DNA from: Octopus vulgaris
Lineage: Eukaryota
Assembly (NCBI GenBank): GCA_951406725.2
Contig: OX597834.1
Span: 40,300,001 to 40,364,000 of the forward strand
Reading direction: 5' to 3'
DNA length: 64,000 nucleotides
Shown: positions 150 through 51,437 of the stretch, piece after piece
Layout of the letters: each line of letters starts with the position of its first letter
Numbering within the stretch: the stretch's first letter is position 1
Position numbers and translations under genes: made by a program
The notes under the pieces: model-generated
Database searches by the model: none
What the model saw: the letters and a program-made list of their open reading frames with translations, nothing else
Told to the model about the DNA's origin: nothing

Positions 150-975
150 GTTGGTAGAAGATCAACAATTTCGGTGAAGGGGCTAAGTTGATTACTTCGA
201 CCTCAGTACTTGACTGGTACTTGCTTTATGGACGCCGAAAGGATGATCGTTGGCTTCGGTGACATTTGAACTCAAAACGTGAAGACGAACAAAATGCCCC
301 TCAGCGTTTTGGCCGGAATACTAACGTTTCTTATTTCTTTATTGCCCACAAGGGGCTAAACATAGCGGGGATAAAAACAAGGACAGACAAAGGGATTAAG
401 TCGATTACATCGACCCCCAGTACGTAACTGGTACTTAATTTATCGACCCCGAAAGGATGAAAGGCAAAGTCTACCTCGGCGGAATTTGAACTCAGAACGT
501 AGCGGCAGACGAAATACCTATTTCTTTATTACCCACAAGGGGCTAAACACAGAGGGGACAAACAAGGACAGACAAACGGATTGAGTCGATTATATCGACC
601 CCAGTACGTAACTGGTACTTAATTTATCGACTCCGAAAGGATGAAAGGCAAAGTCGAACTCGGAGGAATTTGAACTCAGAACGTAGCGGCAAACGAAATA
701 CGGCTACGCATTTCGCCCGGCGTGCTAACGTTTCTGCCAGCTCGCCGCCTTACAAATAATAATAATGATAATTCTTTCCAATTATGACACAAGGTAAACA
801 TTTTTGGCAGGAATGGGAAAATCGATTCCCTCACGACCCAGCAGTGCTCAACTGGTACGTGTTTTAGCAACGCCGAAAGATTGAAAGCAAAAGCAAAGCC
901 GACCTCGGCGGAATTTCAACTCAGAACACAAAGACGGGCGAAATACCGCAAAGCATTTCGTCCAGCGCGGTAACA
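150..975 (-). mobile_element. Cluster of tRNA-derived SINE family A: decayed A1 copy, A2 dimer (332-750), second old A1 copy
   Basis: Reverse complement of GGCGGCGAGCTGGCAGAAACGTTAGC...GAGTTCAAATTCC (A/B-box-like head), a GTCGACTTTGCCTTTCATCCTTTCGGGGTCGATAAATTAAGTACCAG core, and a GCCCCTTGTGGGTAATAAAGAAATA tail. More than 20 copies occur in the window. Confidence 0.9.
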
Positions 976-2830: not shown

Positions 2831-3499
2831 TTGTACTTGTAATGTGTGTGTTGTGATTTATTTTGCGTGTTTGTGTGTTCGAGAGAGAGTGTGCGTTTGT
2901 GTGTGTATGCGCGTGGGTATGAGTATGAGCGAACGGGAGTGAATGCAGATGAGTGAGTGTATGTGTATATATATGTGAGCATGTGTATAATGTGTGAGTA
3001 TGTAATATTAAGATTTCGCGGTGTCACCCAGTTAGCAAATCAATAGCAAAAACGCCGTCATACGAAGCGACAATATACTTATGAAGTTATTTATAACAGC
3101 TTAGAGTTTAATTAGAAGAGACTAACAACACATTTTTGTATTTCTGGGTCAAAACCAAAGAGAGGGAGAGAGAGAGAGAGGAAGGTAGAGAGAGGGAGGG
3201 AGGGAGAGCGTGGAGGAGGGAAGAGATGGGGGAGGAGGGTGAATTGCATGAGTGAATGTGTTGAGGTTTTTAAGCGGAGATACAATCGCCTGAGAAGGGT
3301 CAGAGACACAGTGACATCTACTTACGTCATCAAAGGATGGGATCAAACCGAATAAGCATAGAGAGGGCAGATGTGTGTGTGTGACATATACACACACACA
3401 TGCACACGCTCATATACAGGCATACATATATACACACACACGCACTTGCATATATATACACACACTTACATATACACACGTGCTTACATACACACGCGC

Positions 3500-3513
3500 T
3501 CACACACATATAC

Positions 3514-3544
<31 letters not shown>

Positions 3545-3605
3545 GTATTATATATATATATCCATATATATATATACATATCTCCATATATACATACATA
3601 TCTCC

Positions 3606-5721: not shown

Positions 5722-6110
5722 TTTCTGTTTATTTCCTCGTGTTACTCTCTGCTGGAGAGCGTAGGCTCGAAACGTAAAAAGACTTTCTCACTTTCCCAAG
5801 AGTCAAACTAATACACCTGCTTGTTTATACACCTGTCTTCGTCTTTCTTTTTCTGTAAATTTCAACTATATATATATATACAGTCAATTCAATGAACAAA
5901 AAATTCAAAAACAAATAAAAAACGAATAGAGAGAGAGAAAAATGAAAAAAAATGAACGTGGGGACGTGCGCAAGAATTATATTAGTTTGACACTCGTTGA
6001 TAGGAGAGAGTTCATAACGTTACGAGCATGGCTCTTTGTCGGAAAGGAGAAAGGGAAAAGTCCATGAAACAAGGAAAACCATCAACCGTCCACGTGTGGT
6101 TACATTTCTG
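5719..6110. mobile_element. Two Penelope pLTR-like mini-elements tail-to-tail around a (TA)n tract (5719-5866 +, 5882-6110 -)
   Basis: GAGAGCGTAGGCTCGAAACGT on + and a degenerate AAGAGCCATGCTCGTAACGTT on -. Both 3' ends abut TA repeats. Confidence 0.6.
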
Positions 6111-17911: not shown

Positions 17912-18530
17912 GGCGGCGAGCTGGTAGAAACGTTAGCACGCCGGGCGAAATGCTTTGCGTTTTTCGTCTGCCGCTACGTTCTGAGTTCAAATTCCGCCGA
18001 GGTCGACTTTGCCTTTCATCCTTTCGGGGTCGATTAAATAAGTACCAGTTACGCACTGGGGTCGATATAATCGACTTAATCCCTTTGTCTATCCTTGTTT
18101 GTCCCCTCTGTGTTTAGCCCCTTGTGGGTTTGTAAAGAAATAGGTTTTCGTCTGTCGCTACGTTCTGAGTTCAAATTCCGCCGAGGTCGACTTTGCCTTT
18201 CATCCTTTCGGAGCCGATAAATTAAGTACCAGTTACGCACTGGGGTCGATGTAATCGACTAGCCTCCTCCCCAAAATTTCTGACCTTGTGCCTTTAGTAG
18301 AAAGGATTATTATACATGCGTTTGAAGGTGACAAGAAGGCAGAAATGTTATCGCGCTGAGCAAAATACTTTGCGGCATTTCGTCCGTCTTTACGTTCAGA
18401 GTTCAAATTCCGCCAGAGTCAGCTTTGTCTTTTATCCTTTCGGGGTCGATAAAATAAGTACCAGTTGAGCACTGAGATCGATGCAATCGACTAGCCCCCT
18501 CTCCAAAATTTCAGGTTTTCTACCTATTGT
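17912..18530 (+). mobile_element. SINE A array: A2 + partial A1 (17912-18312) and an older A1
   Basis: The tail AAAGAAATA is followed by a restart at the internal GGTTTTCGTCTG. The A1 tail ends AGAAAGGATTATT. Confidence 0.9.
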
Positions 18531-19325: not shown

Positions 19326-19404
19326 CACTGACTTAACACCCCCTGTTTGATATCAACTCGCCCAAGACCAATCCCGCTTCTATGATACAGACTTCCTGTT
19401 CTAA

Positions 19405-19960
19405 CCAATCCACCCCAACCCTCTGAGTCCCACCCTATCCCTGCAGACAGTGAACCCACCCGCTCCCCTCCAACAAGAAAACAAAAAAAAGCACACGCAA
19501 AAGCAACACACAGAAAACGAACCCAGGCCGAACGTTGTACTATGACAGAACAGAAAGAAGTTAAAAGGGTAATGGAAGAGTATACATGGTGTGAAATAGG
19601 TGAGACCAGGTATGCAGTGATTGAAAAGGAGAGAATAGATGAGTTTATGACAAGGTGCGAAAGGGAGAATTGGGAGGTGAAAGAGAAAAGTTTGAGTGAT
19701 GAATCCGTGAAAAATATAGAGGATTGGTTTGAAGTAAGAATAGAGAAGAACGGTTTTATTATTGCGAATGAACATTTAAGTGAAAGTGAAAACCAAAGGA
19801 CAGGTAAGTGATGCTGACGGATGGGGCCTTTAGCATTGCTTTCATATAATCATTTTTTCATTTAATAATTCATTCTTCATAAATCTAATTATTATGTTCT
19901 ATGTCCCCAATGTTTTGTAATGTCCCATCTGCATCGCCCCTTGTTGGTAATAAAAAATCA
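19405..19960 (+). mobile_element. 5'-truncated, ORF-bearing non-LTR retro-insertion with a 21-bp TSD
   Basis: TSD GATACAGACTTCCTGTTCTAA at 19384-19404 and 19961-19981. The frame is open from the 5' junction to 19811. The 3' end is GCCCCTTGTTGGTAATAAAAAAT. Confidence 0.8.
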
Positions 19961-20117
19961 GATACAGACTTCCTGTTCTAAAGAGATTCTTTTCTTTTTC
20001 CCTTTTCTACTGTAGCCACAAGGTTTGAGATTCTGCAGGTGCGGTTCAGTCCATTACGTAAATCAGTGGTTTCCAGCCTTTTTATTTAAATGAGTTTTTT
20101 TTCCACGGACGCCTTTT

Positions 20118-20528
20118 AATATGCTTCATCTCAAAAGGCGGCGAGCTGGCAGAATCGTTAGCACGCCGGGTCTGAGTTCAAATTTTGCCGAGGTCGCCTT
20201 TGCCTTTAATCCATTAGGGGTCGATAAATTAAGTACCAGTTTCGTACTGGGTCGATGTAATCAACTTAATCCCTTTGTCTGTCCTTGTTTGTCCCCTCTA
20301 TGTTTAGCCCCTTGTGGGCAATAAAGAAATAAATATGCTTATCTCAAAAGGTGGTGAGCTGGCAGAATCGATAGTACGTCGGGTCTGAGTTCAAATTTTG
20401 CCGAGGTCGCCTTTGCCTTTCAATCTTTCAGGGTCGATAAATTAAGTACCAGTTGCGTATTGGGGTCGATCTAATCGACTGGCTCCCTCCCCAAAAATTT
20501 CGGGCCTTGTGCCCAGAGTAGAAAAAGT
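20118..20528 (+). mobile_element. SINE A2/A1 tandem with duplicated flank and shared internal deletion
   Basis: AATATGCTT(C)ATCTCAAAA precedes both heads, and both lack the same ~35 bp. Confidence 0.9.
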
Positions 20529-20939: not shown

Positions 20940-21235
20940 TTCATCCTTTCGGAGTCGATTAAATAAGTACCAGTTACGCACTGGGGTCGATATAATCGAC
21001 TTAATCCCTTTGTCTGTCCTTGTCTGTCCACTCTATGTTTAGCCACTTGTGGGTAGTAAAGAAATAGATATTTCGGCTGCCGTTACGTTCTTAGTTCAAA
21101 TTCCGCTGAGGCCGACTTTGCCCTTCATCCTTTCGGAGTCGATAAAATTAAGTACCAGTTGCGTCCTGGGGTTGATCTAATCGACTGGCACCCTACCCCC
21201 AAAATTTCGGGCCCTATGCCTAGTGTAGAAAAGAG
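20940..21235 (+). mobile_element. SINE A2 (5'-truncated) + partial A1
   Basis: Junction AAAGAAATA|GATATTTCGGCTG. Confidence 0.85.
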
Positions 21236-21549
21236 TACCGTTTCCATTGTTTTTTGACGGTTTTTACAGCCTTTCATGTTTACACCGAAAACACAAACAC
21301 ACGCGGGATTTTGTAGCTCTGAAGAACTTTTTATTGTTGTCCAGTTTTACATAACGTCTCGGTCTTGTTGGTTGGACATAGATATTGAGTGGGGTGGGGT
21401 GGGGTCTTAATTTCCAGCATTACATTGGTGTCAACTGCATGACTGAACAAACATGCTTTTGTCTACGTCTAACGACATTGTATAAGGATCACAGACAAAA
21501 AAAAAAAAAAAACACCCAAAACTGTGATCGGTATCATTTGTCCGAAGAA

Positions 21550-21780
21550 GGCGGCGAGCTGGCAGAATCGTTAGCACGTCGGGCGAAATGCTTAGCGGTA
21601 TTTCGGCTGCCGTTACGTTCTGAGTTCAAATTCCGCCGAGGTAGACTTTGCCTTTCATCCTTTCGGGGTCGATAAATTAAGTACCAGTTACGCACCGGGG
21701 TCGATGTAATCGACTTAATCCGTTTGTCTGTCCATGTTTGTCCCCTCTGTGTTTAGCCCCCTGTGGGTAATAAAGAAATA
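21550..21780 (+). mobile_element. Full-length SINE A2 with a 14-bp TSD
   Basis: GGTATCATTTGTCC at 21530-21543 and 21781-21794. Confidence 0.92.
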
Positions 21781-21974
21781 GGTATCATTTGTCCAAAAGT
21801 GCCACGCCGTGAGAGTGAACCCGGTAACCACGTGGTTCGCGAACAAACCTATTACCGCACAACCACGCATGCGCCTGTTGTCGCTGTTGCTTTATATTTG
21901 TGACACTTAATTTCAAGTCCCAGTGGCTCTTTATTTAGTTCCATGCTACTGGAGCTAACAGCTGTTGCTATGAC

Positions 21975-32281: not shown

Positions 32282-32695
32282 GACGGGCTTCTTTCAGTTT
32301 CCGTCTGCCAATTCCACCCACAAGGTTTTGGTAGGCCTGAGGCTATAGTAGAGGACACTATAGGCGGCGAGCTGGCAGAAACGTTAGCACGCCGGGCGAA
32401 ATGCGTAGCCGTATTTCGTCTGTCGTTACATTCTGAGTTCAAATTCCGCCGAGGTCGACTTTGCCTTTCATCCTTTCGGGGTCGATAAATTAAGTACCAG
32501 TTTCGCACTGGCGTCGATGTAATCGACTTAATCCCTTTGTCTGTCTTTGTTTGTCCCCTCTATGTTTAGCCCCTTGTGGGTAGTAAAGAAATATATAGTA
32601 GAGGACACTTGCCCAAGGTGCCACGCAGTGGGACTGAACCCGGAACCATGTGGTTGGGAAGCAAGCTTCTTACCACACAGCCACGTCTATGCCTA
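32282..32695. mobile_element. SINE B (-) interrupted by a full-length SINE A2 (+, 32363-32593)
   Basis: 16-bp TSD TATAGTAGAGGACACT at 32344-32359 and 32594-32609. Confidence 0.92.
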
Positions 32696-32753: not shown

Positions 32754-33211
32754 GATGTAATCGACTTAATCCCTTTGTCAATTATAACCAACTCCACATT
32801 ATTAATGGCCTCAAGTCAGTTCCTTTCAATTTAATTATTTATACAAGTTACTCTTCTCTTAAGAATATATCAAACGCTGTGGACTGAACCCGGAACCCGT
32901 AATAACGTGATTGGTGTGTGTGTGTGTGTGTGTGTGTGTGGAGACCTACTCCGTGAGGAGCCGAGGTCGACTTTGCTTTTCATCCTTTCGGGGTCGATAA
33001 ATTAAGTACCAGTTTCGCACTGGCGTCGATGTAATCGATTTAATCCCTTTGTCTGTCTTTGTTTGTCCCCTCTATGTTTAGCCCCTTGTGGGTAGTAAAG
33101 AAATATATAGTAGAGGACACTTGCCCAAGGTGCCACGCAGTGGGACTGAACCCGGAACCATGTGGTTGGGAAGGAAGCAAGCTTCTTACCACACAGCCAC
33201 GTCTATGCCTA

Positions 33212-33750: not shown

Positions 33751-34621
33751 TTCTTCCTCCCTCTTCTCCTCTTCTTCCCCTCCTCCTTCCCCTCTTCTTC
33801 CTTCTCCACTTTCTTCTTCTTTACCTTCTCCCTCTCTCGTTCTTCTTTCTTCCTCCTCCTCCGCCTCTTCCTCCTTCTCCTTCCCCCTCCATCTTCTTCT
33901 CTTTCTTCTCTTACTCTTCCTCTGCCCCTCTTCCTCCTCCCTCCCTACTTCTTCTTCTCTTTCTTCTCCTCCTCCTCCCCTCCTTCTTTACCTTCTCCTC
34001 CACCTTCGTCTTCTTCATCGTCATCATCATCTTCCTGGTCTCCTTTTCCCCTTCCTCCTCCTGCCATTTTCTTTATTCCTGGTCTTCTTGGTGTCGTCGT
34101 TACTCTTCTATGCATTTGCTGTTGTTGTTGTTGTTGTTGGTCATATTTTTGGTATTATTTTTGTTATTATTGTTGTTGCTTGTGGTGGTTGTGCCGTCGT
34201 TATTTATTTTTTATTTGGTGTTATTGTTATTTAACCCCTGGCAATACTCATTGACCAGGTGATCGATGTCCAGTGGCGGGCTTCAGACATAATTAGTATA
34301 GATTTCAATTGGTAGAAGCCATGCTGTATCCATTTCCGACCTTTACATTGCGAGTTCAAACCCTACCGAAGCCAACTTTGTTTTCCATTTTTCTAATAAA
34401 AAACAGAAAAGAGACGTTCCAGGAGTGGCTCCCCCTACCATCGCTTGACAACCGATGCTGGTGTGTTTACGTCCCCGTCACTTAGCGGTTCGGCAAAAGA
34501 GAGCCCGAGAGAGTAGGCTTACAAAGAATAAGTACTGGGGACGATTTGCTCGACTAAAAGTGTGCTCCAGCATGGAAACAGTCAAATGACTGAAACAAGT
34601 AAAATAGTGGTGGTGGTAGTG

Positions 34622-47633: not shown

Positions 47634-48484
47634 TTTCTACTCTAGGCACAAGGTTCGAAATGTTTGGGGAGGGGGCCGGCCGATATGATTGACCCCAGTA
47701 AGCAACTGGTACTTAATTTACCGGCGGCGAGCTGGCAGAATCGTTCGCACGCCGGGCGAAATGCTTAGCGGTATTTCAGCTGCCGTTACGTTGTAAGTTC
47801 AAATTCCGCCGAGGTCGACTTTGCCTTTCATCCTTTCGGGGTCGATAAATTAAGTACCAGTTACGCACTGGGGTCGATGTAATCGACTTAATACCTATGT
47901 CTGTCCTTGTTTGTCCCCTCTATGTTTAGCCCCTTGTGGGTAATAAAGAAATAAATAGGTATTTCGGCTGCTGTAACGTTGTGAGTTCAAATTCCGCCAA
48001 GGTCGACTTTGCCTTTCATCCTTTCGGGGTCGATAAATTAAGCACCAGTTACGCACTGGGGTCGATGTAATCGACTTAATACCTATGTTTTGTCCCCTCT
48101 ATGTTTAGCCCCTTGTGAGTAATAAAGAAATAGGTACTTAATTTACCGACCCCGAAAGGATGAAAGGCAAAGTCGACCTCGGCGGAATTTGAACTCAGCA
48201 CATGAAGATAGACGAAATATCGCGAAGCATTTCGCCCGGCGTCTAACGTTTCTTATTTCTTTACTACCCACAAGAGGCTAAACATAGAGGGGACAAACAA
48301 GGACAGACAAATGGATTAAGTCGATTACATCGACCCCAGTGCGTAACTGGTAATTAATATATCGACCCCGAAAGGATGAAAGGCAAAGTCGACCTCGGCG
48401 GAATTTGAACTCAGAACGTAACAGCAGACGAAATACTGCTAAGCATTTCGCCCAGCGCGCTAACGTGTCTGCCAGCTCGCCGCC
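47634..48484. mobile_element. Nested SINE A complex: an A2 dimer (+, 47724-48132) inside a minus-strand A1, which is joined to a minus-strand A2 (48254-48484)
   Basis: 16-bp TSD GGTACTTAATTTACCG at 47708-47723 and 48133-48148. Confidence 0.92.
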
Positions 48485-51023: not shown

Positions 51024-51437
51024 GGCGGCAAGCTGGCAGAATGGTTAGCACGCCGGGCAAAACGCTTTGCGGTATTTCGTCTGCCGCTACGTTCTGAGTT
51101 CAAATTCCGCCGAGGTCGACTTTACCTTTCATCCTTTCTGGGTCGATTAAATAAGTACCAGTTACGCACTGGGGTCGATATAATCGACTTAATCCGTTTG
51201 TCTGTCCTTGTTTGTCCCCTCTGTGTTTAGCCCCTTGTGGGTAGTAAAGAAGTAGGTATTTCGTCTCTCGCTACGTTCTGAGTTCAAATTCCGCCGAGGT
51301 CGACTTTGCCTTTCATCCTTTCGTGGTCAATTAAATAAGTACCAGTTACGCACTGGGGTCGATATAATCGACTTAATCCCTTTGTCTATCCTTGTTTATC
51401 CTCTCTGTATGTAGCCCCTTGTGGGTAGTAAAGAAAT
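51024..51437 (+). mobile_element. SINE A2 dimer with TSD
   Basis: ATGTATATTCAC(G/A)CACA at 51000-51016 and 51436-51452; internal restart at GGTATTTCG (~51255). Confidence 0.9.

Follow-up and report, generated by a model that had tools for sequence, protein, structure and literature searches.

Organization of the locus

Positions 47634 to 48484 of the window, which is the whole 64-kb stretch of DNA that was analysed (G000:C21:40,300,001–40,364,000 of an animal genome, probably that of an octopus), hold nested copies of a SINE family named A2. The A2 unit is 230 nt long, ends at its 3' side in AAAGAAATA and was numbered from the first G of GCGGCGAGC (nt 1), using the copy at 48483–48254 as reference. 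In a minus-strand A2, the tail is followed by nt 14 of an A1-type host. This host is interrupted by a plus-strand A2 dimer consisting of nt 1–230, 4 extra bases and nt 47–230, enclosed by a perfect 16-bp target-site duplication (TSD). The locus was annotated as follows:

47634..47723, minus strand: 3' part of the host SINE (end of the body and A1 tail), cut apart by the plus-strand dimer
47708..47723, plus strand: 5' copy of the 16-bp TSD, located at nt 135 of the host on its antisense strand
47724..47953, plus strand: A2 unit 1, full length (nt 1–230), young GGGTAAT subfamily
47954..47957, plus strand: 4-nt AATA tail stutter at the junction
47958..48132, plus strand: A2 unit 2, nt 47–230 lacking 9 nt; differs by 4% from unit 1 and has the same subfamily haplotype
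48133..48148, plus strand: 3' copy of the 16-bp TSD
48133..48253, minus strand: host SINE nt 14–135 with A1-type variants, joined at nt 14 to the A2 tail
48254..48483, minus strand: full A2 unit 5' of the nt-14 junction, reference for the numbering

The stutter at 47954–47957 likely stems from slippage as reverse transcription starts; extra bases were present at 11 of 167 scored nt-47 junctions. Variants of the dimer at 47724–48132 that had been called private to its two monomers are not so: ACGTTGT was found in 34 and TTAATACCTATGT in 39 of 401 units, and both underlying variants occur together in 22 of the 401. They represent a young subfamily haplotype and were discarded as proof of a single RNA. 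An Rfam match to MIR2646 on 48044–48351 (79 bits, against a cut-off of 245) was rejected as an artefact of two inverted SINE copies; nested antisense insertions of this kind give long RNA hairpins, which could mimic microRNA precursors.

Further A2 loci and a related element were annotated elsewhere in the window:

184..748, minus strand: trimer of A2 1–230 (748–519), A2 47–230 (518–332) and an old, decayed host 14–167 (331–184)
17913..18313, plus strand: A2 unit joined at nt 47 (18143) to an A1-tailed unit
19405..19960, plus strand: truncated ORF1-only passenger 'Y' with A2-like tail; 21-bp TSD at 19384–19404 and 19961–19981
20118..20524, plus strand: A2-tailed unit and A1-tailed copy with a common flank of 19–20 bp and a common deletion of nt 34–68
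20940..21231, plus strand: 5'-truncated A2 (104–230) followed by an A1 unit from nt 47 onward (21067)
21530..21794, plus strand: A2 monomer (21551–21780) with a 14-bp TSD starting GGTAT (21530–21543 and 21781–21794)
51025..51437, plus strand: A2 dimer, 1–230 and 47–229, with a single TSD around both

The earlier note, made from the sequence of the window, had reported that A2 tails restart at one internal position near nt 47 at 518 (minus strand), 18143, 21066, 47958 and 51255, and at a second position near nt 15 at 331 and 48253 (both minus strand). All of these restarts were recovered, the first position being nt 47 and the second nt 14. The nt-47 junction at 518 is exact, the one at 18143 is a variant reading GGTTTTCG, the one placed at 21066 begins at 21067 and reads GATATTTCG, that at 47958 comes after the stutter and that at 51255 after a tail with one change; both nt-14 junctions are exact. 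Units downstream of the junctions at 18143, 21067, 48253 and 331 carry the A1 or an older tail, not A2, and the old host of the trimer shows ~70–74% identity. The two units of the dimer at 51025–51437 are unrelated (7% apart, rank 25 of 73).

At 20118–20524, the A2-tailed unit lies 19 bp upstream of the A1 copy and took its head from that copy, including the 35-nt deletion. The new unit thus contains duplicated host DNA and represents a naturally occurring case of template switching to the target DNA. Two further A2 copies, at 32364–32593 and 32960–33105, have an identical 3' flank in a different SINE family and are apparently the product of a ~510-bp local duplication.

The A2 family

Within the window, one head and body (nt 1–165) is common to three tails, namely A2, A1 and an older tail. 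The landing sequence at nt 47 is GGTATTTCG and that at nt 14 is AGAAACGTTAG. A-box-like (nt 10–20) and B-box-like (nt 74–86) segments were recognised by eye only; ARAGORN detected no tRNA in A2, and Rfam gave no tRNA match. The central part presumably resembles the 66-bp Meta domain that follows the head in MetaSINEs. A search of nt 1–46 for diagnostic sites of head origin yielded no clean marker separating A1 from A2.

Exact A2 tails number more than 120,000 in the 2.8-Gb genome (GGGTA, 91,055; GGGCA, 29,226), and the family shows the hallmarks of a SINE, being short, non-coding, dispersed, of high copy number and flanked by TSDs. The latter were detected in 53 of 101 A2 candidates (null, 3%), measured 10–21 bp with a median of 15 bp, and began directly behind the tail. 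CpG decay differed by tail variant, with values of 0.08 for TA, 0.17 for TG, 0.28 for CA and 0.33 for CG.

Distribution of tail junctions

Genome-wide, the A2 tail was found joined to nt 47 at 33,795 exact junctions, to the A1-type nt 47 at 5,775, to nt 14 at 2,033 and to the antisense strand at nt 135, a third recurrent site, at 252. A single tail variant accounted for 7,291 exact matches at nt 47, in arrays with a period of 184 and up to 7 units. Since reversed-pattern controls for the nt-47 and nt-14 junctions gave 0 matches genome-wide, the observed numbers (7,291, 33,795 and 2,033) lie far above chance.

For an unselected sample, 80 stretches of 10 kb were taken at fixed coordinates, SINE content not being a criterion. 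The 77 A2 tails in these stretches were followed by nt 47 (29), nt 14 (3), antisense nt 135 (2), other SINE positions (4) or unique DNA (39); the nt-47 share in the two half-samples was 19/39 and 10/38. Counted by locus, an nt-47 junction was present at 20 of 58 A2 loci. Both counts (29/77 tails and 20/58 loci) lie above 20%, the share of copies at a single site of one repeat by which SINEU-like insertion is recognised. Mapping of the A2 3' junctions, as the earlier note had proposed, thus gave a distribution that is not uniform along the family sequence. For annotation this means that consensus masking yields mosaic copy ages and mosaic subfamily trees, as more than a third of A2 tails mark junctions within arrays.

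The tail-to-nt-47 joint was also listed in the relatives X3, X18 and X16 (26, 19 and 18 contigs) and was not listed in X8 (organism C), some joints being uncounted in these tallies. Depth over the dimer junction was ~90x lower in X8 than in X3 with A1 depth alike, depth being no measure of copy number; the difference between X8 and X3 is a hint only. A look for empty or solo-host alleles in these data gave contigs crowded with paralogues, none of which spanned the focal locus, and no empty allele was seen.

Relationships between units

Two explanations other than insertion into older copies were considered for the arrays. In the first, arrays derive from multimeric sources that were retrotransposed whole, together with unequal exchange, the junction having arisen rarely and then been inherited. 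In the second, reverse transcriptase stops at nt 47, either because a hairpin loop in the RNA is cleaved or through a primer-like cDNA end, and resumes on the tail of that RNA or a different one within one event.

A single master dimer was ruled out. In a tree of 37 dimers, the first/last label requires 20 changes (25 on shuffling, with 11 of 500 shuffles as low), a clade of first units was rejected (AU p = 0.0001), and monomers 1 and 2 form no separate clades; the presence of such clades is what the earlier note had named as refuting its reading. First and last units of 51 A2-only arrays show no fixed difference, three sites differing in frequency alone. No two of the A1 parts in 47 chimeras are related, the closest pair being 5.3% apart. 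Rolling-circle copying of a 47–230 circle was likewise discarded, as a whole head starts 138 of 170 multimers and the units are unrelated.

Re-priming on the same RNA, the second route offered in the earlier note, found little support: the partner unit is the nearest neighbour in just 4 of the 37 dimers, and mean distance within dimers is 0.094 as against 0.098–0.111 between loci. About 6 of the 37 are sister pairs in the tree, the focal dimer among them, and at most about one dimer in six fits this route. Sharing of rare variants within dimers drops from 15/135 at nt 48–110 to 1/89 at nt 166–230 (random pairs, ~2%), as expected if a minority copied host DNA beside the nick; 20118–20524 is such a case. 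Restarting of reverse transcriptase at nt 47 would further agree with the predicted hairpin, in which nt 47 is the base immediately 3' of the loop (whole-RNA z = −1.9), and with the young heads of the arrays described below. It is most improbable nonetheless: no such loop is found at nt 14, none of 100 listed A1 tails joins nt 47 although A1 has the same head, the hosts are older than the inserts, and genomic TSD-type insertions occur at nt 47.

Transposition of whole arrays does take place. Arrays have 2–7 units; of 45 arrays, 22 are each enclosed by a single TSD, and ~10 of 170 multimers are headless, including a TSD-enclosed tetramer (L150), so that some arrays must move as a whole. Longer arrays also grow locally, since rare variants of a middle unit recur in the unit on either side of it (30/60 and 16/54 at nt 48–110). 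In one array (L014, minus strand, 2833–3570), an nt-14 start is joined to nt 52 via a private deletion in alternate units, which is a higher-order local duplication. Multimeric sources therefore contribute. They cannot be the main source and are refuted as sole cause by the lack of position-specific clades, by the 47 unrelated A1 hosts, by the greater age of hosts and outer TSDs, and by the A2 unit found in 7 of 26 A1 copies chosen by tail alone; that they explain the arrays in general is very unlikely.

Probable insertion into older relatives

Stepwise self-insertion of A2 into older relatives is, in contrast, very probable. It is supported by TSD-type insertions at nt 47 and by the older hosts, and neither a master dimer nor a uniform distribution of junctions was found, the two outcomes that would have spoken against it.

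A complete new head directly after nt 47–59 was seen in 89 matches with varied spacers and 5' joints. Reading of 30 such loci placed 18 in a native head and 12 downstream of a tail junction that was already there; where the tail could be read, the sequence mostly continues from nt 47, as with an ordinary TSD. Seamless joints outnumber TSD-type ones by more than 100:1. At three loci (G000:C10:17,996,023–17,996,498, L194 and L208), the duplicated head (nt 1–62) left by TSD-type insertions was amplified into 64-bp tandem arrays, of 8 units in one case.

Among 38 A2–A1 chimeras, divergence was higher in the A1 part than in the A2 unit in 30 and lower in 6 (p = 1e-5), with a non-CpG divergence of 0.062 against 0.034; CpG decay alone separates host and insert weakly (p = 0.27 for all 38, 0.027 for the 20 loci unselected by junction). 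Outer TSDs had 16 mismatches in 175 positions as against 51 in 1138 (p = 0.015). The older C-type tail occurs in the last units of 22 of 51 arrays and in the first units of 5 of 51. Of the hosts, 16 of 25 have the variant 62T, as do 14 of 22 solo A1 copies and 3 of 18 upstream units, so the sequence is host-type from the junction onward. Downstream hosts are thus older, unrelated and frequently from sister families.

Heads of chimeras look young and not host-like (0.063, compared with 0.060 in A2 monomers and 0.106 in solo A1), and they track the first unit (rho 0.30) better than the last unit (0.13). The explanation lies in overwriting of the host head by cDNA, in a preference for intact hosts, or in frequent transposition of complete arrays.

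Probable partner LINE and ORF1-only passengers

The last 45 bases of A2 match a LINE at L289 and ORF1-only elements. This LINE adjoins an ORF1-only cluster and has APE, RT and C-terminal zinc motifs: its ORF2 gave a PF03372 match and shows YADD and a Cys/His motif in translation, and its homologs carry PF00078, PF03372 and, in some cases, PF13966. A CCHC knuckle (PF00098) is present in the neighbouring ORF1 and in the passengers; comparison of ORF1 with a fish homolog revealed no wider likeness. Judged by its architecture, the partner is L1/Tx1-like; the names of its homologs and the Atlas yielded no clade.

The passenger at 19405–19960 is truncated to 556 bp and belongs to a 1.7-kb family that has ORF1 only, with a CCHC knuckle, and forms tandem stacks. 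Such passengers follow one another head to tail, close to the 5' ends of their neighbours, in rows of up to 6–7 (L271, L272, L277 and L287). Two ORF1-only copies, which have no SINE homology, lie at SINE nt 14 (L036 and L258); one nt-14 copy, from an unselected stretch, has a 12-bp TSD. At L325 (1490–1600), a LINE tail is inserted at A2 nt 163, roughly where the A2 tail region starts, and this may mirror the original acquisition of the A2 tail.

The 30 best copies of the LINE were distributed over two sites of one repeat (11 and 10), other DNA (8) and one unread position; a portion of one flank belonged to the query, and copies may have been carried along by the repeat itself. GGTA followed none of the 29 LINE tails read among these copies. 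The ~500-bp repeat that holds the landing sites is one we take to be Helitron-like (hairpin and CTAG end); its two sites are ~300 bp apart, and a one-base variant of the LINE tail accompanies the second (L291, L307, L264 and L319 ~1950–2500). Members of a sister LINE family, with ORF2 49–60% identical, lie within (TATC)n microsatellites (pieces at L012 3560–3760, L051 2000–2260, L217, L247, L039, L049 and L117). No LINE or passenger tail was found at nt 47 among the loci examined, which are no survey of the clade.

Choice of the landing site

The target of A2 tracks tail position 218. T-type tails (GGGTA) go to nt 47 and GGTAT, and C-type tails (GGGCA) to nt 14, AATAT, TATAT and AGAA. Over all loci, G was the first target base for 49 of 71 T-type and 8 of 48 C-type tails, a difference that holds in three CpG-age bins; in the unselected stretches alone, a G opened 15 of the 21 unique targets of T-type tails and 1 of the 12 of C-type tails (p = 0.0008). 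GGGCA tails stood at 84 of the first 100 nt-14 junctions listed, yet GGGTA tails are ~3x commoner overall. A1 tails have AATAT/ATTAT as targets, and none of the 100 listed joined nt 47.

TSD starts were tabulated, and the motif was present in both copies, 35 of 38 T-type pairs agreeing at base 1; GGTA as part of the tail was ruled out on this ground. The GGTA start that had been noted for the TSDs at 47708 and 21530 holds for both, whereas the former does not lie in unique DNA: it is the recurrent antisense nt-135 site (252 exact matches). This site differs from nt 47 at one of seven bases. It was used ~130x less than nt 47 (252 against 33,795, with patterns of 27 and 24 letters, respectively), and intact antisense 135 sites were commoner in a sample than intact nt-47 sites (106 against 34), in which GGTAT occurred 1,189 times. 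Use of nt 47 also far exceeded that of other GGTA sites. A five-base endonuclease motif is therefore insufficient. The other route of the earlier note, a preferred site within the SINE with the 5' end joined by homology, is supported apart from any reliance on a short endonuclease motif alone.

These data bear on two accounts of self-insertion. In the one that we lean towards, if only slightly, A2 inserts at nt 47 and nt 14 through target-primed reverse transcription by the LINE enzyme, with read-through RNA picking the site and the 5' end fused by homology. In the other, the site is set solely by sequence-specific endonucleases of sister Tx1-like LINEs, an older one at nt 14 with GGGCA and a younger one at nt 47 with GGGTA; we regard it as somewhat doubtful. 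The latter is consistent with the ORF1-only passengers at nt 14, one of them with its 12-bp TSD, with sister LINEs whose fixed targets are (TATC)n and a pair of sites in another repeat, and with tail variants of differing age; SINEU/Tx1-Mar, as described in the cited text, offers a precedent (PMC4494074). Base −1 of 30 TSDs was C in 14, T in 8, A in 8 and G in none, so C or T in 22 of 30; RNA pairing cannot yield this bias, which points to an endonuclease trait. Against setting of the site by endonucleases alone stand the missing LINE or passenger tails at nt 47 among the loci examined, which do not cover all sisters, the persistence of the link between variant and target within CpG-age bins (a noisy clock), and the LINE with the closest T-type tail, which is of similar age and goes to other sites.

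Direct signs of an RNA-templated flank are few, as the 3' TSD copy is shifted toward GGT in only 4 of 53 pairs. In unique targets, the match to GGTATTTCG fades past base 6, and bases 7–9 show no clear enrichment. As the tail variants also differ in age, a switch to another LINE can produce the same pattern as guidance by RNA. Taken together, the sequences suggest pairing of read-through RNA with the nicked target, which changing site-specific LINE partners would explain nearly as well. Guidance of target choice by the RNA flank is judged from these sequences to be about even; it and successive site-specific endonucleases are close rivals and can act together.

Proposed mechanism

Insertion guided by read-through RNA would proceed as follows. 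It would start from the last 45 bases that are common to A2, the APE–RT LINE and the ORF1-only passengers, with TSDs of 10–21 bp after the tail, and would use nt 47, which the TSD-type insertions there show to be a genomic target. A loose endonuclease probably nicks at Y^RRWA-like steps. Pol III read-through beyond the tail would give an RNA with the 3' flank of the source copy, which could pair with the primer; progeny would then come to lie before the same bases, and the preference would therefore be inherited. In arrays, the flank of the source is GGUAUUUCG..., which matches nt 47 of every relative perfectly and might so set up a feedback loop. The cDNA would subsequently pair with host nt 1–60, the extra head being overwritten or never made. 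Finally, headless arrays would move as whole RNAs and longer arrays would also grow by local duplication, steps for which some of the arrays above provide evidence.

An extension of this mechanism, possible rather than probable, is a heritable guide: the bases past the tail in the read-through RNA would choose the site and be passed on via the TSD. A lineage with GGTATTTCG would thereby have become self-homing after the split from a relative, with a quarter of sister copies now hosts and tens of thousands of arrays formed.

A2 offers a direct, countable path from a dispersed SINE to tandem arrays, a question left open in the papers on satellites cited here. Landing in its own putative Pol III head would renew promoter and target and spare genes. 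If the target is set by the RNA flank and not by protein, a passenger RNA can redirect LINE enzymes, which would be relevant to RNA-programmed gene insertion.

Comparison with known systems

In the main text of open papers, the literature search revealed no report of a SINE with its own head as target. In the repeat annotation of O. vulgaris, 13 recently active L1-Tx1 families are described, and the first part of that paper does not mention such arrays (PMC13282606).

In MetaSINEs and MESC (PMC4824008), as far as the text cited here extends, a tRNA-like head is combined with a central domain common to the superfamily and with swappable LINE-derived tails, of which the A2 family has three; the paper has no tandem or target-site data. 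In Alu-like dimeric SINEs, left and right monomers fall into separate clades, whereas A2 dimers form no such clades.

SINE-derived satellites (sSats) of squamates (PMC10702118) and TSD1-(SINE)n-TSD1 arrays of the blood clam (PMC11481361) are ascribed mainly to unequal recombination in the parts of these papers considered here. They resemble A2 in having arrays of partial units, a whole head on the first unit and one TSD. Their units are also cut inside the tail, and target-primed self-insertion is not demonstrated in those parts, whereas every A2 unit ends at the exact start of reverse transcription. Arrays make up about a third of A2 loci (20/58) compared with ~3% of blood clam elements, according to the same text (PMC11481361). 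As to the likeness of units within a locus that marks sSats, A2 dimers show no more of it within than between loci, and longer arrays do share variants.

For R2Ol, insertion efficiency is reported to rise from 12% to 96% with 100 target bases on the RNA (PMC6530143), flank pairing was proposed for SART1 and is cited for R1Bm (PMC7265360), and in R1 upstream homology is described as giving seamless or duplicated 5' joints (PMC2718515). On these accounts, A2 shares with R1, R2 and SART1 the precise 5' joints, in A2 likely formed by homology, or otherwise a TSD with duplicated upstream sequence, as well as tandem arrays at one site; pairing of RNA-borne target sequence at the nick, shown for those elements, would be a further likeness. 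R1, R2 and SART1, as there described, are autonomous LINEs of rDNA or telomeres with strict endonucleases, whereas A2 is a non-coding passenger that targets its own dispersed family.

The closest system is that of SINEU-1/2/3 of crocodilians, which, in the cited text, are mobilised by target-preferring Tx1-Mar LINEs (Kojima 2015, PMC4494074). Both SINEU and A2 form tandem copies by repeated insertion, and in both the SINE is less strict than a fixed-site LINE. As described there, SINEU targets an unrelated Mariner and its tandem copies are separated by TSDs; A2 targets its own putative Pol III head, seamlessly and depending on the tail variant. A2 is thus a real, large, self-targeting variant of Tx1-type insertion as known from SINEU/Tx1-Mar, and new are the dependence of target choice on the SINE tail variant and the ~130x use of nt 47 over an antisense site with one mismatch.
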